The translations under genes were made by a program, and so were the position numbers. Source: Candidatus Latescibacterota bacterium (GTDB taxonomy: Bacteria; Latescibacterota; UBA2968; UBA8231). Taken from it: a DNA stretch of 64,000 nt. The notes beneath the pieces were generated by a model. It was given only the letters and a program-made list of their open reading frames with translations, did no database searches and was not told the origin of the DNA. Positions within the stretch are counted from its first letter, which is position 1. Each line of letters begins with the position of its first letter. Positions 1-45,029 of this stretch are shown here, piece after piece. The stretch covers positions 864,001 through 928,000 of the forward strand of contig CBDAOB010000005.1 in NCBI GenBank assembly GCA_965197905.1, written 5' to 3'.

Positions 1-1206
1 GACGCCGAGGGCCATGCCCACATCGCCTACCACGACCATCAAGCCCCCAACTTCAATCCCCAGCTTGGGGACGCGACCTACGCCTTTCAGGATGGTGACG
101 ACTGGGTCGTCGAGACTATCGTCCATGCAGGTCACGACGGGTGGGACACGAGCATCGCCGTATCTCCGTCGGGCGAGGTGCACGTGGCATCCATCGATCC
201 CGTCCAGTTCGGCTCGCTAGAAGGGGTCGAATGGGCTGTGCGGGGGGCGGGTGGAGGCTGGTCGGTAGAGGCGATCGGCAGTGGTCCCGTCCCATATGAG
301 TTCGGCACCGGGCTGGTGCTGAATCGGGAAGGGGTTCCCTCAATTGTCTATCACGACGGCAGCGAACGGCTCAACCCCGGACCCGATGGCAGCGACCTCT
401 TTCTGGCGGTGAGAAACGGCGGGAGCTGGTCTTTGGAGGTCGTCGACCAACGTGGCGACGTGGGGAAATTCGCCAGCCTGGCGATGGACAGCCAGGACCG
501 CGAGCACATCGCCTACTTCCATTGGACCGAAACCGGCGCCGGCATCGTCAAGTACGCCATTCGCGACGACACGGGTTGGCAGGTAGAAGAAGTGGACGAA
601 TTGAATTCGGTGCAGATCGCTTTTCTGGGCGCCCGACGCATGATCGCGATCGCGGTGGACGGCGATGACCGGCCGCACATCGCCTACGCGGACCAGGGGA
701 AGTTGCGCTATGCGCGTCACAACGGTACGGACTGGGACATAGATCTGGTTGCGGTGCCGATGGGAGACGGCGCCATCCTCGGACAGCTGGTCTCTCTGGC
801 GTTGGATGAGTCCGGCCGGCCGCATGTCGCTTATTACGAGCTCGCTGCCAATGCTCCGTCCTCCACTGGAACCGTGTATTACGCGGTAGCTTCTGTGCCA
901 ACCTCGGTAACCGAAACGGTGAAACTTCCGGAGAAATTTCGTTTGGCCAACGTCCCCAATCCGTTCAACCCCTCCACCGAGATCCGATTCTCCTTCGCAA
1001 CTCCGCGTCAGGTGCGGCTGGCTGTTTACAATCTGCTGGGACAGGAAGTTCGCCTGCTGCATTCGGGTTGGTTCGAGCCGGGCGCCCACCGAACAACGTG
1101 GGACGGCACGGATGCGGAGGGCAACGAGATGGCATCCGGCGTCTATCTGGCGTTTCTGCGCGCCGGGTCCCAGCAACAGGTGCGCAAGATGCTGTTGTTG
1201 CGTTAG
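1..1206 (+). CDS. Secreted beta-propeller repeat protein with C-terminal FlgD-Ig/T9SS type A-like sorting domain (5' partial)
   Basis: Frame open from base 1; repeated DxxxxxHIAY motifs; C-terminus NVPNPFNPSTEIRF...VYNLLGQEV...WDGTD...SGVY...KMLLLR. Confidence 0.8.
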   Translation, partial: DAEGHAHIAYHDHQAPNFNPQLGDATYAFQDGDDWVVETIVHAGHDGWDTSIAVSPSGEVHVASIDPVQFGSLEGVEWAVRGAGGGWSVEAIGSGPVPYEFGTGLVLNREGVPSIVYHDGSERLNPGPDGSDLFLAVRNGGSWSLEVVDQRGDVGKFASLAMDSQDREHIAYFHWTETGAGIVKYAIRDDTGWQVEEVDELNSVQIAFLGARRMIAIAVDGDDRPHIAYADQGKLRYARHNGTDWDIDLVAVPMGDGAILGQLVSLALDESGRPHVAYYELAANAPSSTGTVYYAVASVPTSVTETVKLPEKFRLANVPNPFNPSTEIRFSFATPRQVRLAVYNLLGQEVRLLHSGWFEPGAHRTTWDGTDAEGNEMASGVYLAFLRAGSQQQVRKMLLLR

Positions 1207-1335
1207 TTTTGGCGTCGAGCCCCGGCCGTACGGCATTGCAGTCGCCGTCGGGCGGCCCCGGGCCGCGCGCCAAGCCAATCCGGATTTCGTGAAGTACTGA
1301 TTCTAGCATCACTTATCCCTTCAAAGGAACTGCCC

Positions 1336-4300
1336 ATGTATTTCCTGGTGCTTCTTTTCTCTGTCCTGGTTCTGGAGCCTTTTCCGCTCTTTGCTTCCAT
1401 CTCGTTCTCCAACCAGGCTTCCACGGCGGGTGTGGCCGACCCTGGTGAGGCCAACGGAGCCGCCTTTGGGGATTACAACGGGGATGGCTGGCCCGACCTG
1501 CTGGTGATGCGCATGGGCATCTGGGAGCATCCCCTGTTCTACCTCAACCAGGGGGATGGCAGCTTCGCAGACCAGAGCCAAGTCCTGGCTGCTGCTAAGA
1601 AGCAGGCATTGAGCGGGAGCTTCGTAGACTACGACGGCGACGGGGATCAGGACATCTACATCGTGTACTACGGTGCGTCCAACCAGCTCTTTCGCAACGA
1701 CGGCGGTGCATTCGCCAGGATCGACCCGCCAGATTTTCTGGCAGAAAACGACGTGGCGCTCAGTGCCGTATTTGGCGATTTCGACGGTGACGGCGCTGTC
1801 GATCTCTTTACCACCCATCGCTTCTCTGTGTCCAATCAGTTCTACACCCGCATGTACGCAGAAGGCTTTGCAGACCAGAGTCACATCATCAGCTCCCTGC
1901 GTTCCGGGCGGGACACCTTCAGCGCCGTGCCTTTTGACTACGATGACGACGGCGATCTGGATCTCTACGTCAGCAATTTAGGTTTTCCCAACCTGCTGCA
2001 CCGCAATGATGGTCACGGGGTTTTCCGACAGGTGGCCGAGGCTGTCGAACTGCGCCACCCGGGGGCCAGCGTGGCCGCTTTTCCGGCGGACTACGACAAC
2101 GATGGAGACCTGGACCTGTACGTGGTCAATGCAGGGGAGCAAGCCAATGTCCTCTATCGCAACAACGGGGACGAGCGCTTCGTCGACGTGACCTCAGCAG
2201 CGGGTACAGGGGAGAGAAGGAGGAGTTTAGGAGCGGGGTGGGCGGATTTCGACAACGACGGAGATCTCGACCTGATCGTCTCCAACTCAGGTGGGCCCAC
2301 TGTGTACGAAAACAATGGAGACGGCACGTTTGCGGATATCACTGCTGCGGCGCAGGGCGGGAGCCGGTCAGCGGGGCTGAGTACGGCGGGAGTTGCCGTG
2401 GCGGATTACGATCTGGACGGGGATGTGGATGTGTTCCTGGCCGGCACCGGGGAGGATCTGCTGCTGCGCAACGACAGCGCAGCGCAGGGCCACTGGTTGA
2501 GGCTGCGCCTCACTGCCCGTGGAAAGGCACAAACAGCCCTGGGGGCGCGGGTCACAATTGAGACGTCGGCCGGGATCCAGGTGCGCGAGTACGTGAATGC
2601 GGCAGCTTTGGGCTCTCTGCACGGAGACCTGCTGCACTTCGGCTTGGGATCCCAGGTGCAAGTGGACCAACTCACGGTGGACTGGCCTTTGGGGCAGCGC
2701 CAGGTCCTAAAGGGTGTGGAGGCGGATCAGGTCATAACCTTGCGGGAACCTCTGCCCCAGCGCGATCTGCGCATCCGCACAGTGGTGCGGCCTACCCTGG
2801 CTCCGGTCTGGGCACCGCTGGCGCCCGAGGTAGAGGTCTACAATGCCGGCCAGAGCCGGGTGACTGGCGTTGCTTTGCAGGCGCAAATCACCTATGGAGA
2901 CCGCTCTGTCTACAGCGCCTCCGAGCCTGTCCCCGGGCTGGCGACCGGGGCTTCTGCCCGGGTCCGCTTTCCGTCCTGGACGCCGGTGTTGGGCGGGGTG
3001 TACAGGTTCCGGTTTGAGCTGGAGATCAACGACGATGTGAGCGGCAACAATACCTGGGAGCGCACCTCGTACCTGTATCCTTTCAGGGACGTGGCCCCCG
3101 AACTCGGCGTGGACGATCCAGGCAAGGGCTGGGCCGGTGCTTTTGCCGACTACGACAGCGACGGCGATCTGGATATCTACATCTCCAATGGGGGGTCCCT
3201 GGGTAGGGGAGCCAATATCCTCTACCGCAATGACCTGGAGCGGGGATTCACGGATGTGACCGAGGCCAGCGGGACCGCTGATAGGGGCAATGGAACCGGT
3301 CTGGTCTTCGCTGATTTCGACCGGGACAGCTTCCTGGATCTCCTCATTCGCCAAAGGGGGTTTCTTCCCTGAGGGTGAGTCAAACCGGCTCTTCCACAAC
3401 AACGGGGACGGTAGCTTCTCGGATATTTCGACAGCAGCCGGTCTGGATCTTCAGGAGTCCAGCTATGCCCCAGCAGTGGGGGATTACGACCAGGACGGGT
3501 ACCTGGATCTGTACGTGTCGCAGCTCCGCAGACAGTCCAACAGACTCTACCACAACCAGGGAGATGGGACCTTCGAGGATGTGACCCAGGCCAAGAACAT
3601 CCAGAGCTCCGTCGACGTCAGCGGTTCCTCGGCAGCCTTTGCCGACTACGACAACGATGGAGACGTGGATCTCTACGCCAGTGTGTTCGGAGGGCATGAC
3701 CTGTTCTACTCCGATGTCGGCGATACCAGCTTCGCGGTCAGCCCTGTCGGGAATGAGAGGGGGGACTCAGTGGGGATAGTGATGGGAGACTACGACAGCG
3801 ATGGCGATCTGGATGTCTACGTGGTCAACCGGCACTGGCGCAGCGGGCTCTACCGCAACGAGGTGGATCAGCTGTTCGCGGACGTGAGCGCTGCCAGCGG
3901 CACCGAGAACTTCGCGCCAGGTACGGGCTGCGCCTTTGGCGATCACGACAACGACGGCGATCTGGACCTCTTCGTGGTCAACCTCGAAACAGCCGACCGG
4001 GTCTACATGAACCTGGGAGACGGCACGTTTGTGGATTTGGCCGGGGCCTTTGGCATGGCCGATACTTCGCGGGCGCGCGGGGTCATGTTGGGCGACTACG
4101 ACGAGGACGGGGACCTGGATGCTTACGTGGTCAACGAAGGAGCGAGGAATCGTCTCTACCAGAATGGCGGCAGCTCGCACAACTGGCTGAAGGTGGACGT
4201 GCAGGGCGTGCAGAGCAATACGGATGGCATTGGCGCGCGCATCGGCATTTTCTCCGAGGGCCAGGCCCTGATCCACGAAGTGAACGGCACCGCGGGTTTT

Positions 4301-36978: not shown

Positions 36979-38397
36979 GTGCCGATACGGCCGCCACGCA
37001 AGAACCTGGAAAGAGTGACTATCTACGATCTGAGATTCGAACCCGCAAACGGTGATCGCCAGCTGTTTCTAGACGACCACGGGATTCAACACATCGAGAA
37101 TCTCGTTCGCACGTTACATCCTCCCGCTAAGAAGGGAGCCGTCATCCGTCCCGTCCTCGGGATCGATCCCCCATGTCTCCAGATCCGTTCGGCGCCGATC
37201 TGGGATCCCGAAAAGGAACGGTTCCGCTTCTGGGGCGGTGGTTCGGTGCGAGAGAGCACGGACGGCCTCAACTGGAGTATCGTCGCACCGTATTCAGGTC
37301 CGGCTCTGGTGGTCTACGACGGCGATGATCCCGACCCCGGTCGGAGATACAAGGCATTCTCGCCCGGCCATCGGGCGGTATCTCCAGACGGAGACACCTG
37401 GAGAACCCTTGATCTGCCTCCGGTTCCCAGCCAGGACGAGCACAACTTCTCCTTTGACCAGCGCAAGAGACTGTTCATCGCGACGGTCAAACATGCCGGG
37501 CCCCACGGGCGGTCTGTCTGGCTCTCCACCAGCGAGGATTTCGACACCTGGACCGAACCGGAGCTGATGTTCCATGCCGATGAGGTGGATCAGCTGATGG
37601 GTCGTGAGCGCATACAGGAGCGATTCGCCGATCCCAATCTCGCCTCTCCGTTTTTCGATTTTCCACCGTTCTACAACGTCGACATCTACAACATGTCGGT
37701 CTTTCGCTATGAGAGTGTCTACCTCGGTTTTCCGATGATGTATTGCCAGACCGGCAAGGTAAGCGGAAGCTGGCCCGACTTCGCCAACTGGGAGCTCTCG
37801 GAGGAGATGCGATCCATATTCCAGCGCGACGGGGACTGGACCGGTTTTCATCCCGTCCAATTCGCCTGGAGTCGGGACCTTCGACAATGGGCGCGTCCCC
37901 CTGAAAGGAACCCGTTCATCGACCTCTCACTACTGGGAGGCGGCGACCTCGATCTCACTTCAGTGACCCCACCCTCATTTCCCCTGGTGCGCGACGATGA
38001 ACTCTGGCTCTACTACAACGGCGGCAGACAGTACGGTGGACCGGAACCGAAGCGGGGGGTGGACCAAGAGATGTGCGGTACCTGCCTGGCGGTGATCCGC
38101 CGGGACGGATTCGTCTCGCTGGACGCTGGAGCCGAAGAGGGCGTACTGATTACCAAGCCGTTTCGATTCGCGGGAGAGAGCTTGTTTCTCAATACACAGG
38201 CACCTGTCGGGGAGGTTCGGGCGGAACTGCTCGCAGCCGACGGCACGGCCGCATGCACCTCTGAACCGCTCTCGGGTGACCTCCCTAACGCAGCTTTTCA
38301 ATGGCGGCAGGGGGACCCGGTGACCGTCCGTGATCAGGAGGTCACGCTGCGTCTGGCAGCGCGGGATGCACAGCTGTTCTCCTACTGGATCGAATAG
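36979..38397 (+). CDS. Putative five-bladed beta-propeller glycoside hydrolase-like protein
   Basis: RQLFLDD, STDGLNW, DPGRRYK, SRDLRQW, RRDGFVSLDA, LFSYW pattern. Confidence 0.6.
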   Translation: MPIRPPRKNLERVTIYDLRFEPANGDRQLFLDDHGIQHIENLVRTLHPPAKKGAVIRPVLGIDPPCLQIRSAPIWDPEKERFRFWGGGSVRESTDGLNWSIVAPYSGPALVVYDGDDPDPGRRYKAFSPGHRAVSPDGDTWRTLDLPPVPSQDEHNFSFDQRKRLFIATVKHAGPHGRSVWLSTSEDFDTWTEPELMFHADEVDQLMGRERIQERFADPNLASPFFDFPPFYNVDIYNMSVFRYESVYLGFPMMYCQTGKVSGSWPDFANWELSEEMRSIFQRDGDWTGFHPVQFAWSRDLRQWARPPERNPFIDLSLLGGGDLDLTSVTPPSFPLVRDDELWLYYNGGRQYGGPEPKRGVDQEMCGTCLAVIRRDGFVSLDAGAEEGVLITKPFRFAGESLFLNTQAPVGEVRAELLAADGTAACTSEPLSGDLPNAAFQWRQGDPVTVRDQEVTLRLAARDAQLFSYWIE

Positions 38398-38463
38398 TAC
38401 CTGCTGCGGAAAGCTGAATAGGGTTGAGCGGAGTGCTTGAGTTTGCGGACGTTGTGCCGCCGG

Positions 38464-39519
38464 TTAGGCGAAGCTGGGAGCGTCTGAAGGAACCCGATAG
38501 CCGACGCGACCGCTGACCAGATCTGCCACCTGCACCAGCTCACCACCCCGCTCCGCCGATAGATTCGCCCCTAAAACTGCCGCCAGGGTATTGATTCCAT
38601 CCCCATAAGGACTGAGAGTCTTCGCCGGGTCCCCGCTGCGAACTGCTGCGACGAATGCCCTGGCCTGCAAGGCAAACGCACTATCGGTCCGGTCAGATTC
38701 CCACACGGTCTCACCGTTCTCCACCACCTTGCCACGGCCCCACTCGATCAGGCAGTCGTCGCCAACAACCAGCAGCTGGCGCGATGAAGCGCCGCTTTCC
38801 AGCATCACTCGCGAGGTCGTCGCATTCGCCGTGATGCCGTTGGTCAAGCGGTAATTCACGTTGTAGACATGGGGCAGGTTCATCGGTTCTGGACCTTCGC
38901 CCTTCTTGCGGACCACGTAGAACGCGGAGGTCGCCTCGAAGTCGGCGGCGGTCAGATAGCGCAGCAGATCTATTCGGTGGATGGTATTTTCGACAAAGGA
39001 TCCGCCGCAGAGCTCGTAGCGGCTGGTCCAGTAGCGCTGCGGTTTGCCACTATAGATTGCGTGGATCAACGCGTGGCGCACCGTGCGCTCCCGTAAGAGT
39101 TCCCGTGCCACGTGGGCGGCGGGCTCGTAGCGAGTGACGAAACCAACCTGGGTGATGATGCCCGCTTTCTGCACGGCCGCGTTGTACTCCAGCGCCGTGG
39201 ACATATCCAGGCTCTGGGGCTTCTCCACGAACACCGCTATACCCTTGTCGGCGGCCATCAGCAGCTCGTCGGTGTGGCTCGTCGGTGGGATACACAGGTA
39301 GAGAGCGTCCAGCTCCTCCCTGTCGAGCATTTCGCGATGGTTGCTGTAGACGGTCCGGGGCTTGTAGGTTTTGACTTGCTTGTCGAGCAGCACCTCGTCG
39401 AGGTCGCAAAAGGACTGGAACACCACTTCGTCCTTCTCCACCAGCGGCGCCAACGCCGGCAGATGAGCCAGCGTAGGGATCTGTCCCAGACCAATAAATC
39501 CAAGTCGTACCGGTTCCAT
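38464..39519 (-). CDS. Gfo/Idh/MocA oxidoreductase
   Basis: GFIGLGQI, VFVEKP, GFVTRY, IHRIDLLRY. Confidence 0.9.
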   Translation of the reverse strand: MEPVRLGFIGLGQIPTLAHLPALAPLVEKDEVVFQSFCDLDEVLLDKQVKTYKPRTVYSNHREMLDREELDALYLCIPPTSHTDELLMAADKGIAVFVEKPQSLDMSTALEYNAAVQKAGIITQVGFVTRYEPAAHVARELLRERTVRHALIHAIYSGKPQRYWTSRYELCGGSFVENTIHRIDLLRYLTAADFEATSAFYVVRKKGEGPEPMNLPHVYNVNYRLTNGITANATTSRVMLESGASSRQLLVVGDDCLIEWGRGKVVENGETVWESDRTDSAFALQARAFVAAVRSGDPAKTLSPYGDGINTLAAVLGANLSAERGGELVQVADLVSGRVGYRVPSDAPSFA

Positions 39520-39586
39520 CGCCTCGACCCGTAGAATCCTGCTGGTGCTAGATTACTCCTTGTAATAGCTCGAGCAGGGGAATGTA

Positions 39587-42500
39587 TCAAGCATTCGGAG
39601 GCAGTCCAACAAATTGACGACTGTAGGCATCCAGCAGGGGATCGGACTCGCGTTTGTCGGCGGCGCGTGCGAAGACGACTCCGGGGCAGTTCGCCCGCCG
39701 TGCTCGCGGCAGCAGACCGTAGCCGGAAGGCAGCGCTCGTTCACCCGTTCGCTCCAACTCAAACATCTCTCCCATCACCTCGGCAATGCCCCGTCGAGCT
39801 CCCACGACTCGGGCAAACGCCTCGTGCGGTTCTAACCCCTGCCGCCAACCGTGTCGCGTGGGCACGGTCCTGCCATCGATGTCGGTCGTCGCGATATTCG
39901 GGCCGATCAGCTGGAGGAGCTGCATCGTGTTACCCCTCGCTCCGCTCTTGCAAAGCAGGTTCAGCGGCCCGAATTCGTCGTCGTCGATCTCGTCGCATCT
40001 CGCCAACCAATGCAACGCTTCATCGGTGTAGGACTCCCATTGGTCCCGGTCGTCCTCCTCCGGTGGCGAGGGAAGATCCAGGCTAGTGCCGACGAATGGA
40101 TTCATCGACAGACCAAGGGTTTTGGCTTCTTCGAACCCGCGACGCATCAGGCGTTCGGAGGTCGTAAGGGCCTCCTCCACACCTTTGCGCTCGACCATCT
40201 CGCGCAGCGCATCGACAAGCGGCCGGCGTGTGATGAAGGCGGCACCCTTCTCGATTTTCATGCCGGGGAGTTTTTCGATCTCAGCATGGCCTTCCGGTGT
40301 CATACTCAAGCTGGCCAGTCCCACAACGGCATCCATTCGCGGATCCAGGGAGCTGATCAATTCGGGATTCCGCTCAACCACGGCGCGGATAGATAAGCGC
40401 TGCTCCGCCTCGAGCTGCCCAGCTTTGGTGATCGGGAGAAAAACCGCCATCTGGTCGCCGTCGAAATCCGCGTTCATCAACTCGCAAGCAAGCGGAGGTA
40501 GGCGCAGCGCCCGTCCCGGACACCGAACCGGTCGGAAAGCGAGAAAAGAGGAAATAGGGGAAAGCACCCATCCTGTGTAGACAGTCACCCACGAACCCGC
40601 CAGGAGTTGGTCGAGGGATTCTTCCAGCTCGGGCGTCGGCCTGGTGGGTGCGGTCGAGGGTACGGTTTCGCGAGCGAGCAGCGGGCCGAACAGGGTCCAG
40701 CAGATCTCTTCGGGAAGGCCGATCTGATCGTAGTGCAGTTCAGGCCCAGGGGTGGTAACAGTTCGTCCACTGAACAAGACACTGGCGTTGGGAAGCAAAT
40801 CCTTGGGTTTGACAACCGCATTCAAATAGGCGCCGAGCATCTCTTCGAGGTGTGTCTGCGCACTTTCTATCAAGGCCTTTGGGGCGCTGCTGTCGACCAT
40901 CTGTTGAAGGCGAGAATTGGCCGACTCCAGCTCGGCGTATTCCGGCAGCTCCTCAAGTTGCCCGACCCTCTTCAAACGGTGTTGGCGGAACCATGGGTGA
41001 GGAACGGGAAGCGCAAACTGCAAGCAGGGATTCGGTGGCGACTGGAAGGTCAACCGCAGACATTCCTGTTCGAGGGCAACCTGGATTCCCGCGATCTCCA
41101 GGCGCTGGACGAGTCTTGTAAACGACGGTGCAGGCGGACCTGCCTGTCGCAGCTCTCCCTTGCCGACCTTTTCCGCCAGCGTCTCGGATCCGTCGCGCTC
41201 CGCGGCGCAGGTGTTGAAGAGCTCAGACGCGGTCTCGAGCGCGCCGATGTTCGCCAGCATACCATATTCGTTGGCGCCAACCGTTTGCGGCCGGCCATCT
41301 CCAACCGAGGCATGTATCTTGCCGCGCACATCGTGGATCGTGCGGCCCCAGTAGACCCATCCCGCGGTGCTTGGGCGTTGTAGTCTTTTACCGTTAACGG
41401 TAAGGGTTTCCATGCCGTCGCCGGATATTCCCGCTGTCGTCATTCGCTTGCGGAGCTCCTTCTCGCTCGGCGCCTGAAAAGGAGGCACGATCGCCGGTTT
41501 GCTTTCGGTCTTCGCGATACGACCCATCAACGCTTCCCGTACGACCCCAAAATTCATGCGGGATACCAGGCCGCAGACGCTGTAGATCAGGTCGATGGGG
41601 ACCCCGTTCAGGTGCGGCATCTCTACGTCCGGGAGGATGCACGAGACCACACCCTTCGATCCGTGCCGGTTGGAAATCTTGTCACCTACTTCGATTGGGT
41701 GAGGATCCTGGAAACGGGAAGCCGCCGATTCGCTGAGTACAATCGCATCTTCAAAGGTGTAGCCATCCCAGGAGATAAATGCGGTGAGCAGGTTCCGACC
41801 GCACCAGAATTCCGGGACATCAGGCTCCGCGCCGGTTTGGACCAGAGCCGGTTCTGGTTGCGCCTGGGGGGTCCACTGGCGCATCATATTGGCCCCCATC
41901 AGGAGCCGATTCCCGTCACTGTGTTCGAGAAACGGAATCGCGGAGGCGGACAAACCCAGGTTTGCCGCCGGCGTGTTCTCCACTATTTCCAGGCGACTGT
42001 CCCGAATCTCTGCCCCCTGTGCGATGGTGAGGATGCGTCCGACGTTGGGCCCTTCGGGGGTTTCGAAGGGGCAGGTGCGGCCGAAATGACCGGGGGTGAA
42101 GACCTTCTTGCGCTCAGGAATCGACACCCGGCGCAGATGTACTTGCCGAGATAACCAGTTTATTTCGACCAGTTCCTCACCAAGCTGCTGGAGGAATTCG
42201 CGAACCCAGTCGGTGATCGGTACCCATGCGGCAGCAAGGGTTTCCTCCCATTGCATCTCTTGCGGTGCGTCTCCCAGGCGCTGCTCAACAAAGTGGAACA
42301 ACTGCTCGCCCACACAGCGAATCTCAGCTCGATCGAGATCGTCCTCGGTGGCTTTCGGAGATACAACAAGCCACCGACCGTCCATCTCGAAAACCCCCTC
42401 GTCATTTGGCTCAGGCACATCGTCATGTTCCACCACGACCTCGCCGTCCTTTCCGCGCAGAACCACCTTGACCCGGCACCTATGATGTCCGGCTGCTTCG

Positions 42501-42610
42501 GTATGATATCCCACAAGTGGAATCCGCTCGCTCAGTAATTGCGGCAGCAGTTCCTGGATGAACCGATCCCACGAGGTTTTGTGCCAGGGTGCCCCGTAGC
42601 TCAACTTCAT
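39587..42610 (-). CDS. Miniaturised single-chain RNA polymerase beta-beta' (RpoB-RpoC) fusion-like protein, ~1007 aa
   Basis: Colinear RpoB motifs (HFGRTCPFETPEGPNVG, IPFLEHSDGNRLLMGANMMRQ, WDGYTFEDAIVLSE, GDKISNRHGSKGVVS, SRMNFG) then RpoC motifs (PVPHPWF, SGRTVTTPGP, NADFDGDQMAV at 40454-40474, SGARG, GARRGIAE); GGAGG RBS; ATG overlaps the sigma stop codon. Confidence 0.9.
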   Translation of the reverse strand: MKLSYGAPWHKTSWDRFIQELLPQLLSERIPLVGYHTEAAGHHRCRVKVVLRGKDGEVVVEHDDVPEPNDEGVFEMDGRWLVVSPKATEDDLDRAEIRCVGEQLFHFVEQRLGDAPQEMQWEETLAAAWVPITDWVREFLQQLGEELVEINWLSRQVHLRRVSIPERKKVFTPGHFGRTCPFETPEGPNVGRILTIAQGAEIRDSRLEIVENTPAANLGLSASAIPFLEHSDGNRLLMGANMMRQWTPQAQPEPALVQTGAEPDVPEFWCGRNLLTAFISWDGYTFEDAIVLSESAASRFQDPHPIEVGDKISNRHGSKGVVSCILPDVEMPHLNGVPIDLIYSVCGLVSRMNFGVVREALMGRIAKTESKPAIVPPFQAPSEKELRKRMTTAGISGDGMETLTVNGKRLQRPSTAGWVYWGRTIHDVRGKIHASVGDGRPQTVGANEYGMLANIGALETASELFNTCAAERDGSETLAEKVGKGELRQAGPPAPSFTRLVQRLEIAGIQVALEQECLRLTFQSPPNPCLQFALPVPHPWFRQHRLKRVGQLEELPEYAELESANSRLQQMVDSSAPKALIESAQTHLEEMLGAYLNAVVKPKDLLPNASVLFSGRTVTTPGPELHYDQIGLPEEICWTLFGPLLARETVPSTAPTRPTPELEESLDQLLAGSWVTVYTGWVLSPISSFLAFRPVRCPGRALRLPPLACELMNADFDGDQMAVFLPITKAGQLEAEQRLSIRAVVERNPELISSLDPRMDAVVGLASLSMTPEGHAEIEKLPGMKIEKGAAFITRRPLVDALREMVERKGVEEALTTSERLMRRGFEEAKTLGLSMNPFVGTSLDLPSPPEEDDRDQWESYTDEALHWLARCDEIDDDEFGPLNLLCKSGARGNTMQLLQLIGPNIATTDIDGRTVPTRHGWRQGLEPHEAFARVVGARRGIAEVMGEMFELERTGERALPSGYGLLPRARRANCPGVVFARAADKRESDPLLDAYSRQFVGLPPNA

Positions 42611-43203
42611 TCGAATTCCTCCCAGTCTATGCCGAGGGCTTTCCACCTTCTGCCGATCTCCCTGCGGCCGTAATGTAAGCGCGATTTTACGGTTCCCGGA
42701 GGTATGCCCAGTTCCTGGGCGACCTCCTTCACCTCCATCTGGGCGTCGTAGATCAAACGCATCACCTCTCGTTTGTCTTCCGGCAGGTCGTCCACGAGAT
42801 CCTGCAATCTATCGCGTACCTCCTTTCGTTCGAGCAGCGTGTCCGCACCAAGCGCAGCCGCATCGACCAACCACACCGGGACGTCGCTTTCATCCTCTTC
42901 AAGATCGAGCCCGGAAGCTTCCAGCGGCTGCTGGCGGCGGCGACGCACGGTGCGGATATGGTTGAGGGCCAGATTGGTGGCTATGCGGTAGAGCCACGAC
43001 AGCAACGATGAACCGCTCCACTGCGCGGAGTGCGACCAGACCCGTAGAAACAACTCCTGGAGCAGGTCTTCGGCCGCACCTCTGTCGCGCACCATCCGTT
43101 GCAGATGGCGAACTAGATCGGTGGAGTATCGTTGATGGAGCTCTTCGAACGCCTTTTCGTCCCGGCTTCGAATGCGCACCATGAGGTCATGGTCAGTGTC
43201 CAA
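42607..43203 (-). CDS. ECF-type sigma-70 family RNA polymerase sigma factor
   Basis: Region 2 AEDLLQELFLRVW...SWLYRIATNLALNHIR; region 4 LPEDKREV...EVAQELGIPPGTVKSRLHYGR; TTG start after AGGGAGG. Confidence 0.93.
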   Translation of the reverse strand: MDTDHDLMVRIRSRDEKAFEELHQRYSTDLVRHLQRMVRDRGAAEDLLQELFLRVWSHSAQWSGSSLLSWLYRIATNLALNHIRTVRRRRQQPLEASGLDLEEDESDVPVWLVDAAALGADTLLERKEVRDRLQDLVDDLPEDKREVMRLIYDAQMEVKEVAQELGIPPGTVKSRLHYGRREIGRRWKALGIDWEEFE

Positions 43204-43220
43204 ACAACCTCCCTACTGCT

Positions 43221-43249
43221 CATGACACCGAATGAAACGGAGGGGTTCA
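43221..43249 (-). promoter_or_regulatory. Candidate ECF (autoregulatory) promoter
   Basis: TGAACC-N17-GTCATG on the minus strand just upstream of the sigma RBS. Confidence 0.55.
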
Positions 43250-43274
43250 AAGAAAAATATAGTATGGTGGGTTG

Positions 43275-43320
43275 TTGACTCTCTGCCTGGCTGCAATATA
43301 TTGACTACTATAGGTAGTTA
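43275..43320 (+). promoter_or_regulatory. Sigma70-type promoter with adjacent palindromic operator for the TrmB-ilvE unit
   Basis: TTGACT-16 bp-TATATT followed by TGACTAC-TATAG-GTAGTTA inverted repeat. Confidence 0.5.
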
Positions 43321-43349
43321 ATAATCAGGCAAAGGAACTGCTCATTCAG

Positions 43350-44136
43350 TTGGGCTTGAGCGAATACGAAGCCGGAGCCTATCTCTCCCTCCTGAGCTGC
43401 CAACCAGCAACGGCATACGAACTTGCCAAGGTATCCGGCATCCCGAGCTCGAAAATCTATGAAACAGCCAACCGCCTGGTAGACAAGAAGCTTATCGAGC
43501 CGGTTACCGCCGATAGTGGACGCGGGCAACGCTACATCGCCGTGGGGGCCGAGGACTTTATCTCCATCAAACGCGAGGAGGTTGCGCGCCAGACAAACGT
43601 GCTTGAGCCTCTCCTGAAGGCCGCCAGCAACGGTATGGAAGCGGACTTTATCTGGCAACTGGACGGGGCCGACGGGCTCGAGGATAAAACGCGCCCAATT
43701 GATTCGGGAGGCAGAAGGAACCGTGTTGGCCTCCCTGTGGCAAGCCGAGTTCGATGCCTATGACGACGATCTGCAAGCCGCCGAGCGGTGGGGTGTCGGT
43801 CTCGCCCTGGTGCACTACGGCGCGCCCGCCAGGCGCTTGGGGGCAACCTTTCACCACCCCGTGGAAGAGACGATCCGGCAGGAACGGGGCGGGCGCGGCC
43901 TTACCCTCGTTGTCGATCAACGCTGCGTGGTCATCGCCACTTACTTCGACGACGGTCGCGTGGAAGGGGCCTGGAGCCGAAATCGGGCGTTTGTCTTTGT
44001 TGCCGAAGACTGCGTCCGGCACGACGTCTATATCACCAAGGTTACGGCAACCATGGATGACGATCTCAAGCGCAACTTCGGGGCGGACTACGAAAAACTG
44101 CGTGATGTGTTTCAAGCGGTGGAGCGGGAGTCGTGA
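43350..44136 (+). pseudogene. TrmB family transcriptional regulator, frameshifted near 43694-43696
   Basis: LGLSEYEAGAYLSLL...AKVSGIPSSKIYE wHTH in ORF 43350-43763; effector domain (LTLVVD...HDVYI) in ORF 43699-44136; removing one C joins them. Confidence 0.8.
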
Positions 44137-45029
44137 AAGCGTGCTGGCTGAACGGATCGCTCGTCGATCCGAATTTAGCCTCGGTTTCGGTCTTCGATCA
44201 TGGGCTGCTTTATGGTGACGGCGTTTTCGAGGGGATCCGCTTCTACGACAAGGTCCCGTTCCGTCTCGATGCACACCTTCAACGAGTCGAGCGCTCGGCC
44301 CGGGCGATCGCCCTCGAGATACGGTATTCGCGGACCGAGCTGGCCAGCGCCGTAGGCGAGACGGTCGCCGCCGCCGGCGAACAAGGTGGCTACATACGAT
44401 TGGTGGCGACCCGGGGTATCGGAACTCTGGGTGTCGATCCGCGATCCTGCCGGGTCGGAACGGTGTTCATTCTTGCCGACAAGCTCGAGTTGGCTGACCA
44501 GGCGGTGTATCGAAACGGAGCACGGGTCATTCTTTCAGCCACGCGCAGGCTCGGCGCCGACGAAATCGATCCGCGCATCAAATCGCTGAACTATCTGAAC
44601 CAGATCCTGGCGCGCATCGAAGCCAACCATGCAGGTGCGGACGAGGCCATCATGCTCAATCGTGCCGGGATGGTAGTGGAAGGTACAGCGGACAACGTGT
44701 TTGTCGTCGCCAACAACCGGCTGCTGACGCCGCCACTGTCAGACGGGGCACTGGATGGAATCACTCGTCAGGTGGTGTTCGAGCTCGCCGACAGACTTGC
44801 GATCCCCTGTGGGGAGGGGAGTCTCGCCCCCTACGACCTGTACAACGCGGATGAGTGTTTCCTCACCGGTACCGGAGCCGAGCTCATTCCTGTGGCGGAG
44901 GTTCAGGGCCGGCGGATTGGTAGGGGAGAACACGCAATCTTCGAACGCTTGCGGTCCGCTTACAGTGAACTGATCAAAGAAGAGACAACCTTGGATCTTT
45001 GCTCGAAAGATGCTACTGTTCTGTGTTGA
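44133..45029 (+). CDS. ilvE: Branched-chain amino acid aminotransferase (class IV PLP)
   Basis: DHGLLYGDGVFEGIR, IKSLNYL, EGTADNVF, LDGITR, ADECFLTGTGAE. Confidence 0.88.
   Translation: MKACWLNGSLVDPNLASVSVFDHGLLYGDGVFEGIRFYDKVPFRLDAHLQRVERSARAIALEIRYSRTELASAVGETVAAAGEQGGYIRLVATRGIGTLGVDPRSCRVGTVFILADKLELADQAVYRNGARVILSATRRLGADEIDPRIKSLNYLNQILARIEANHAGADEAIMLNRAGMVVEGTADNVFVVANNRLLTPPLSDGALDGITRQVVFELADRLAIPCGEGSLAPYDLYNADECFLTGTGAELIPVAEVQGRRIGRGEHAIFERLRSAYSELIKEETTLDLCSKDATVLC

Follow-up and report, generated by a model that had tools for sequence, protein, structure and literature searches.

A 64,000-nucleotide window of a Candidatus Latescibacterota genome (contig CBDAOB010000005.1, positions 864,001 to 928,000) carries a gene for a reduced RNA polymerase (RNAP), here called the mini-RNAP, which lies at 42610-39587 on the minus strand and encodes 1007 amino acids. 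Judged from its predicted structure, the protein is a pruned beta subunit (residues 1-516) fused to a pruned beta-prime subunit (residues 514-1007) in a single chain, and in the window its ATG overlaps the stop codon of a sigma factor gene of the extracytoplasmic function (ECF) type (ATGA). It keeps the two-metal active centre and has lost the trigger loop. Our preferred reading, to which we give a probability of roughly 0.4, is that the host polymerase and this ECF make the mini-RNAP, which would be an open-site centre of slow nucleotidyl transfer, putting a brake on the ECF and buffering stress at the active site. A preliminary description made from the letters alone had covered the last two thirds of the reading frame.

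Residues 1-515 of the model (pTM 0.93) superpose on a beta chain with a VIA Z of 30.3 and a root-mean-square deviation of 2.5 over 513 aligned residues, and residues 514-1007 superpose on positions 16..1359 of E. coli beta-prime with a Z of 30.1 and a deviation of 6.2 over 483. All Pfam hits at E up to 1 are to RNAP families exclusively, and the same genome also encodes intact canonical rpoB and rpoC. Residue numbers below are those of E. coli, taken from alignment to the K-12 genes (HHalign profile blocks), and RNAP modules and residues go by their customary names and roles. A word-indexed search scored 8000 candidates, of which 846 proteins passed at E up to 1e-20; the top 120 were all full length. 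A cluster-level search added more distant members. The alignment set behind all family counts holds 183 proteins of 940-1110 amino acids, query included, which are top hits and not a random sample; they are 36-59% identical to the query, and 127 are left after thinning to <72% identity. The features of the two-gene cassette in the window are as follows.

39587..42610, minus strand: mini-RNAP gene, fused pruned beta and beta-prime (model pLDDT 95.9; dN/dS 0.138 against the nearest relative)
41063..42610, minus strand: beta-derived half, residues 1-516 (VIA superposition, HHalign blocks)
41747..41755, minus strand: FED motif, equivalents of E813 and D814, metal B (D in 173/183, E in its place in 8; E813 in 156/183)
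41678..41686, minus strand: GDK motif, K1065 equivalent, at the flap deletion junction (K in 178/183; 20-residue spacing in 170/183)
39590..41071, minus strand: beta-prime-derived half, residues 514-1007 (VIA superposition)
40991..41008, minus strand: PVPHPW motif, remnant of the beta-prime strand after the deleted Zn domain (H in 178, P in 183, W in 182 of 183)
40814..40945, minus strand: clamp helices, residues 556-599, fold kept, sigma-contact face altered (two model helices; residue counts)
40556..40582, minus strand: VYTGWVLSP, a lineage-specific loss of NRxP (in the family, R in 170/183 and P in 173/183)
40454..40474, minus strand: NADFDGD catalytic loop, metal A (triad in 177/183; NADFDGD unaltered in 104; at the first position, N in 132 and D in 34)
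39743..39829, minus strand: bridge helix, residues 928-956, N-terminal half conserved, centre not (R780 in 158/183; model)
39716..39742, minus strand: nine-residue loop in place of ~510 beta-prime residues comprising the second Zn site, trigger loop and jaw (span counts, model)
39602..39715, minus strand: region-H-like C-terminus, residues 975-1002 matching beta-prime 1327-1354 (weak HHalign match, probability 0.4)
42607..43203, minus strand: ECF sigma factor, 198 amino acids, sigma2 and sigma4 (Pfam Sigma70_r2 and r4_2; D46 and Q49 in 115/115, E50 in 112/115)
43224..43249, minus strand: putative ECF-type promoter, TGAACY -35 and GGTGTC -10 (motif at identical spacing in 18/20 sequences)

The losses are distributed over both halves. 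The beta half keeps the protrusion, region D, fork loop 3, region F, the barrel and the C-terminal clamp, and lacks the lobe, fork loop 2, the sandwich-barrel hybrid, the flap and switch 3. In the profile alignment its gaps fall at 150-443 (lobe), 536-546 (fork loop 2), most of 583-650, 709-791, 825-1054 (flap) and 1251-1265 (switch 3), and those of beta-prime take out the Zn domain, clamp head and lid before 264, the rudder and most of switch 2 at 313-338, then 522-577, the rim tip at 653-680, and the second Zn site, trigger loop and jaw at ~798-1310. All three downstream-DNA grips are gone. The cassette has no alpha part, neither domain nor gene, and the deleted beta-prime 522-577 is a segment that we take to be involved in alpha binding. 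The pattern that the preliminary description had drawn, with no flap, Zn domain, trigger loop or jaw, is family-wide in the 183 homologs, and its positions for FED, GDK, the clamp-helix string (40868-40939) and NADFDGD are exact. As a list of losses it was incomplete, since the lobe, fork loop 2, switch 3, lid, rudder and most of switch 2 are missing as well.

The flap had been declared absent from the short distance between FED and GDK, and this holds: 20 residues separate the D of the first from the G of the second in the window copy, against 248 in E. coli beta, with a range of 16-45 in the family. The Zn-binding cysteines are likewise absent, with 0 or 1 Cys in residues 501-560 of 174/183 homologs. 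Here the beta C-terminus passes into a strand resembling beta-prime 16-25 and then directly into a HIELAxPxxHxW-like motif, although the HHalign match of PVPHPW to the HIELA..HIW segment of beta-prime is weak. From the bridge-helix Arg (R780) to the AA motif of region H there are 43-61 residues (47 in 134/183) versus 557 in E. coli. Because this span and the FED-GDK spacing are conserved, the deletion junctions are traits of the family. Features of a canonical core that the mini-RNAP lacks include the trigger loop and helices, beta flap, beta-prime Zn domain, lid, rudder, switch 2 and switch 3; it is neither a canonical RNAP core nor a member of the phage single-chain families.

The trigger-helix pattern matches 0/183 homologs, and a cryptic equivalent, which the preliminary description had named as a finding that would refute it, was found by neither pattern, length nor secondary structure in the 183 homologs and the model. 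Downstream of the bridge helix the model has the nine-residue loop, which is its lowest-confidence block (mean pLDDT 75), followed by helices at 966-972, 976-985 and 995-1001, and three short helices with such a loop are too little for trigger helices, though a foreign loop that reaches into the active site could have escaped these criteria. The bridge-helix centre packs on the trigger helices in normal RNAP; in the family it has drifted (K789 in 1, T790 in 3 and A791 in 19 of 183). No family-specific conserved His or basic residue stood out near the catalytic loop as a substitute, and no conserved third gene that could supply a trigger loop, as ORF7 may in the yeast killer element, occurs across 52 loci. 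The chain had been described as jumping from the bridge helix to a region-H-like end, and the region-H assignment is backed by the superposition range ending at beta-prime 1359. The SGY at 39719-39727 may not be that of the bridge helix. One HHalign run does pair the two across a gap, but P0271, a longer fusion polymerase whose bridge helix is intact, also shows a string resembling PKGF..RA at the region-H end.

Against this background of loss, the active centre is well conserved. The catalytic aspartates D460, D462 and D464 are present in 179, 180 and 180 of the 183 proteins, and the whole triad persists in 123/127 after thinning. K1073 is found in 178, R678 in 175, R1106 in 181, H1237 in 175, Q688 in 180 and R529 in 169, and further contacts are kept at Q513 (149), N568 (168), R352 (168) and R346 (145). 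The set most directly tied to chemistry (D460, D462, D464, D814, R678, R1106, K1065, K1073, H1237, Q688, R529, R352 and R425) is kept at 92-99%, when only 46 of 327 polar-consensus columns reach 90%. All of 12 key residues are retained in 133 proteins and at most one is lost in 168, with multi-site decay in three. Since their contacts stay conserved, selection acts on metal A, metal B, several RNA nucleotides and the template strand. A DxDGD loop, the metal-B Asp with a two-Lys barrel, and the fold of both halves with a bridge helix together place the protein, by fold and residues, among the two-barrel (double-psi) polymerases. The argument that the metal site still matters is therefore upheld, as the aspartates show no free decay; NADFDGD as such is not invariant, the aspartates within it nearly so. 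Fidelity contacts are more relaxed (N458 in 132/183, with D or E in 42; R731 in 144/183).

The window copy is more eroded than most homologs, lacking Q513, R346, R425 and P427. The last two belong to NRxPTLH, which the preliminary description had seen replaced by VYTGWVLSP. The replacement is real in this copy and the TLHR half is lost family-wide, but the loss of NRxP is a quirk of this lineage, both residues being absent in only 4 of the 183 and the nearest named relative, L020, a Candidatus Latescibacterota assembly with a 92% identical protein, sharing it. In two Poribacteria loci (L037 and L038), the K1065 equivalent is replaced (GDS/T) with the triad kept, and a major facilitator superfamily transporter gene is next.

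The sigma2-binding coiled coil, which had been called recognisable, survives as a fold only. The clamp helices form two helices in the predicted structure, and R278 (151/183) and R281 (147/183) are retained. R275 occurs in 0/183 proteins (A or V instead) and E295 in 0/183 (A or T), likewise 0/127 in the thinned set, N294 in 5 and M298 in 1, and A302 in 29 with Arg in its place in 102. In E. coli, holoenzyme formation is impaired by R275Q, E295K and A302D (PMC8321222). The coiled coil of RNAP is also used by NusG-type factors (PMC6211774), and finding it is therefore not in itself evidence of sigma binding. On the side of the sigma factor, the core-binding residues D46, Q49 and E50 are almost without exception in place, and the sigma4 recognition helix GTVKSR is nearly invariant.

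The ECF gene is directly upstream of the mini-RNAP gene in 19 of 20 genome loci (the remaining locus begins inside the mini-RNAP) and in 9 of 13 metagenome loci (2 being fragments or without upstream DNA and 2 having no ECF). Twenty further regions, chosen for odd spacing, ECF absence or spread, have it in 18, once frameshifted; the locus sets share a few genomes. Across 168 genomes of the host phylum, 65 have the mini-RNAP, 62 the ECF subgroup and 59 both, with 6 that have only the former and 3 only the latter, and in these 3 the ECF lies within 2.8 kb of a contig end. Trees of the two genes match for 39 pairs (distance r = 0.91, kin not being independent). There is no other conserved neighbour, and no repair, replication or RNA-processing gene travels with the mini-RNAP in 52 loci.

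The putative promoter, with 15 nt from GAAC to GGTGTC, recurs upstream of the ECF in the window and 19 loci with the exception of one variant and one locus without upstream DNA. Other consensus-strength sites in the window genome occur at chance (11 found versus 7.8 expected; 5-13 at other spacings), and in the genus g31 each of 21 genomes has exactly one GGTGTC-type site, at the cassette. From these sequence counts, the cassette promoter would usually be the only strong site for its ECF in the genome, with weak targets possible. Of 30 non-cassette promoter-like sites examined, long reading frames enclose 26, and the other 4 appear to be intergenic. Two of these 4 belong to non-carrier genomes, and one, at locus L240 of a carrier genome (G012:C96:9549-9574, minus strand), is a second consensus promoter ~370 nt before an ATP-binding cassette (ABC) ATPase gene, which is a possible second ECF target. 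GAAC...GG(T/C)GTC promoters also precede large exported proteins resembling tetratricopeptide repeat proteins (L248, L249 and L251), including in genomes without the mini-RNAP, so that a related motif is probably recognised by a different ECF of the phylum. At L109:822-4007 the promoter stands directly before an intact mini-RNAP gene with no ECF; the gene upstream is one that we take, from its appearance, to encode a threonyl-tRNA synthetase. A conserved initial transcript was considered and dropped, since the conserved bases after the -10 box resemble a ribosome-binding site and are missing in g31. No Rfam match was found in window positions 38000-45000, and on the coding strand neither terminators nor sigma70 promoters exceeded chance.

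In 6 of the 20 regions chosen for inspection, a gene is inserted between ECF and mini-RNAP: an ABC exporter in 4, and a protein of 381-396 amino acids in 2. The exporters (L213:1953-3746, L216, L217 and L214:2333-4093) have a membrane part and an ATPase in 586-597 amino acids and are of two types. The other insert is helical-looking, occurs in two g31 genomes (L215:4967-6112, minus strand; L218:1860-3050, plus strand) and has no Pfam or NCBIfam hit. Downstream of the mini-RNAP, g31 has a BlaI-like repressor and a BlaR-like M56 peptidase.

Loci with the mini-RNAP were found in Latescibacterota, Poribacteria, Chloroflexota, Planctomycetota, Myxococcota and Hydrogenedentota, and in 3 of 401 sampled genomes of another phylum. 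Genes flanking the cassette are ordinary chromosomal genes that vary freely between loci, and no full-length mini-RNAP was found on viral contigs (9 partial loci), in phages (0 of 23 records cover 80%) or on plasmids (0 of 71). Values of dN/dS are 0.13-0.21 in 10 pairs. Some genomes have a second cassette or a second partial mini-RNAP (G076:C1 at 1.43 Mb and 3.37 Mb, the second G076 copy on a long branch; G131; G042:C2), and broken copies occur in G140, G066 and G151, with a frameshifted ECF in G145. Databases label family members as hypothetical or by Pfam domain, and a full-text literature search whose coverage leaves out most subscription journals returned no description of the family. For the terms tried, the supplement of PMC7826278 has, in the part covered, no entry for an ECF group neighbouring an RNA polymerase, PMC7708050 gave no trigger-loop information, and PMC8195603 deals with different systems.

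The same genome encodes a second, rarer fusion of 1917 amino acids, made up of one alpha N-terminal domain, beta and beta-prime (G000:C3:765313-771066, plus strand; locus L233:3314-9067). It has lost the lobe and Zn domain, has NADFDGD and the HPW motif, and has a trigger loop without its His; it occurs in 4/168 genomes of the phylum, with no sigma gene seen adjoining. P0271 and P0267 are other alpha-beta-beta-prime fusions. In an unrooted tree of 29 rows, from which 10 of 39 rows were excluded as near-redundant or most divergent, the 10 mini-RNAPs cluster together (SH-aLRT 100), with the longer fusions placed between this cluster and the canonical enzymes. Stepwise reduction from canonical RNAP via longer fusions is only suggested by this sequence tree, because it is unrooted and the tool flagged long-branch attraction.

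How could such a cassette work? Conservation points to one promoter driving the ECF and the mini-RNAP, the latter as the only conserved gene under it. Quite probably, host core enzyme carrying the ECF would read this promoter, since a -35/-10 pair at fixed spacing calls for a flap and none of the usual core contacts is missing from the ECF. Judged from its residues, the mini-RNAP probably accommodates two Mg, an NTP and a short RNA-template hybrid, and it would probably add nucleotides slowly, distributively and with poor sugar selection, in the manner of a trigger-loop-deleted RNAP. The slow and distributive behaviour is expected because trigger-loop deletion in T. aquaticus RNAP makes the enzyme four orders of magnitude slower, bringing a rate of 100 per second down to 0.0016, while NTP affinity changes little and 2'-deoxy NTPs are poorly discriminated (PMC2874521). 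At about even odds, the mini-RNAP would also hold the ECF through its re-tuned clamp helices, from the usual gene position of an anti-sigma factor. A ligand or lesion of the active cleft (an inhibitor of initiation or of the NTP site, or a stalled short hybrid) could then bind the mini-RNAP and free the ECF, which would raise the level of mini-RNAP, which in turn would soak up or process the ligand. Exporter inserts fit a toxin-stress response of this kind, and together with the deletion map, the lost sigma contacts and the near single-target promoter they shift the weight toward a brake or decoy role. In its most novel form, which we offer tentatively, the mini-RNAP would be a domesticated core serving as an anti-sigma factor, with the two-metal RNAP active site as sensor and self-induction via its own ECF; it would signal and cushion attacks on the active centre of transcription. 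A plain NTP or Mg sensor, among the options raised at the outset, is too narrow, because contacts for several RNA nucleotides and the template strand are also conserved.

Several observations weigh against this brake. An anti-sigma factor would not need RNA and template contacts; Pfam finds no anti-sigma or Zn-binding anti-sigma domain in the mini-RNAP, nearly all of whose residues superpose on RNAP; and the altered clamp-helix face may mean that it binds no sigma at all. In many lineages the mini-RNAP is coupled loosely to the ECF, across gaps of 73-263 nt or inserted genes, and full-length or nearly full-length mini-RNAPs occur without an adjacent ECF at L106, L109, L220 and L221. The promoter motif is not private to the cassette, because similar promoters occur in genomes lacking the mini-RNAP (L248, L249). 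The exporter inserts, which fall in two related groups, may be passengers. The reading names no specific ligand, and the rifamycin pocket is not conserved. YonO, a single chain free of a trigger loop, transcribes efficiently (PMC5467207).

This last precedent also bears on a somewhat less probable alternative, that mini-RNAP and ECF form a private holoenzyme, an orthogonal, alpha-independent RNAP that opens its cognate promoter with sigma4 placed without a flap and some other element doing the job of the trigger loop. Complete two-metal and hybrid contacts, near-obligate co-inheritance with matching trees in the 39 related pairs, and folded clamp helices with R278 and R281 speak for such an enzyme, which could be a rifamycin-insensitive backup as S531 is mostly replaced. 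Against it, the lobe, jaw, clamp head, switch 3, most of switch 2, lid, rudder, flap and trigger loop are all lost together, no His or basic substitute stood out near the catalytic loop, the five solved enzymes in the P23-45 preprint all retain part of the trigger loop (10.1101/2022.12.01.518664), and its only strong target would be its own 3.6-kb operon. It keeps its share of probability because YonO works without trigger-loop homology (PMC5467207), the lost modules are individually dispensable in vitro, and enzymes without clamp or lid work, such as P23-45 gp96, which is clamp-less (10.1101/2022.12.01.518664), and the yeast killer-element ORF6/ORF7, which lacks clamp, lid, rudder and rim helices (PMC6211774). 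The earlier doubt about processive transcription is reasonable, given the trigger-loop deletion data (PMC2874521) and the missing downstream grips, but YonO (PMC5467207) keeps it from being established.

Unlikely, in our view, is a sigma-independent effector, for which ECF and host core would merely induce the mini-RNAP. On exposed templates or R-loops, the mini-RNAP would lengthen or trim short primers of RNA or DNA, or pyrophosphorolyse them; it would serve in priming or repair and possibly use dNTPs too. An open cleft without downstream grips suits pre-melted templates, RNAP without a trigger loop is poor at rejecting 2'-deoxy NTPs (PMC2874521), N458 is acidic in 42/183, the sigma contacts are lost and ECF-less mini-RNAPs persist in four loci; yet no repair, replication or RNA-processing gene accompanies it in the 52 loci, the ECF would be left without a visible brake, and clamp-helix R278 and R281 are still conserved. 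A decaying paralog or assembly artefact without function is very improbable, and for the family already refuted: patchy distribution, several broken copies and the four residues missing from the window copy are set against identical deletion junctions in 183 proteins of 36-59% identity from at least five phyla, dN/dS of 0.13-0.21 in 10 pairs, and intact rpoB and rpoC in the same genome. Of the sensor and decoy options, one specific to rifamycin is close to negligible. In its favour, region D is retained, Q513, H526, R529 and R687 are conserved, and exporters occur in some operons. Of the pocket residues Q510, Q513, F514, D516, H526, R529, S531, L533 and R540, only Q513, H526 and R529 are kept in >80% of the 183 proteins; S531 is found in 13 (mostly R, L, V or I instead), F514 in 3, Q510 in 14 and D516 in 93, and L533, G534 and R540 went with fork loop 2.

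Around the cassette in the window, a Gfo/Idh/MocA oxidoreductase gene (38464-39519, minus strand) begins 68 nt after the mini-RNAP, with no terminator found between them; the arrangement recurs in L020, and a similar one is seen in L112. On the other side is a divergent TrmB-family regulator (43350-44136, plus strand), whose helix-turn-helix (43350-43763) and effector domain (43699-44136) occupy overlapping frames, which suggests a frameshift, and the next gene is a branched-chain aminotransferase.

Compared with known systems, the mini-RNAP is a direct descendant of canonical RpoB/RpoC with an ECF, with 513 and 483 superposed residues, catalytic, NTP- and hybrid-binding residues in common, and likewise a neighbouring ECF with a -35/-10 promoter. 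The canonical core has ~2750 amino acids in several chains, whereas the mini-RNAP has ~1000 in one, is additional to the normal enzyme, lacks the lobe, flap, Zn domains, lid, rudder, switch 3, jaw, trigger loop and alpha part, and has changed sigma contacts. YonO of the B. subtilis phage SP-beta resembles it as a ~100 kDa single two-barrel chain with no detectable trigger-loop homology and lower fidelity, and is as fast as multisubunit RNAP; in vitro, any one of flap, lid, rudder, zipper and lobe can be dispensed with (PMC5467207). YonO is phage-encoded and very distant from cellular RNAP, in contrast to the chromosomal, sigma-linked mini-RNAP, which is ~25-30% identical to bacterial beta and beta-prime. 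P23-45 gp96 and gp64, QDE-1 and phi14:2 gp66 are likewise single-chain two-barrel enzymes, in which the clamp or other modules can be dropped (10.1101/2022.12.01.518664). Yeast killer-element pGKL2 ORF6, a 982-amino-acid Rpb2::Rpb1 fusion, is similar in size, fused and pruned, with lid and rudder missing, and the ORF6/ORF7 enzyme works in vivo (PMC2919709, PMC6211774). ORF6 is of eukaryote-virus origin, uses no sigma and has neither clamp coiled coil nor rim helices, both of which the mini-RNAP partly keeps; pGKL2 adds a second subunit, ORF7, with further beta-prime regions, whereas the mini-RNAP carries its beta-prime C-terminus in cis, with no gene for a second subunit. If the mini-RNAP does transcribe, it would be a natural ~110 kDa sigma-dependent polymerase that lacks both trigger loop and flap; it would test directly which RNAP modules are required and provide a compact orthogonal expression system.

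Trigger-loop-deleted RNAP offers a functional likeness, an open active site from which normal NTP affinity, slow catalysis, poor dNTP discrimination and no inhibition by streptolydigin would be predicted (PMC2874521); that enzyme is an engineered mutant of the full polymerase, and the mini-RNAP is a natural, long-evolved family that may have compensated. New in this analysis are a deletion map in E. coli numbering, the loss throughout the family of the sigma contacts on the clamp helices, a promoter with nearly a single target, and the exporters inserted into some cassettes. A two-gene cassette with a defined promoter makes both questions, that of transcription and that of the brake, addressable with two purified proteins and a short DNA fragment. 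As a brake or decoy, the mini-RNAP would represent a new kind of signal transduction, a polymerase core sensing transcription stress, and may point to undiscovered RNAP inhibitors. Operons that pair an ECF and an anti-sigma factor of the soluble kind share the autoregulated ECF, the co-transcribed and often overlapping downstream gene and the lack of a membrane sensor (PMC8999054), and the mini-RNAP gene too lies directly downstream of an autoregulated ECF and is co-transcribed by arrangement. It differs from them in being an RNAP core derivative without an anti-sigma domain, whose binding of the ECF is putative; if it does bind, it would be the first anti-sigma factor made from the normal partner of sigma.

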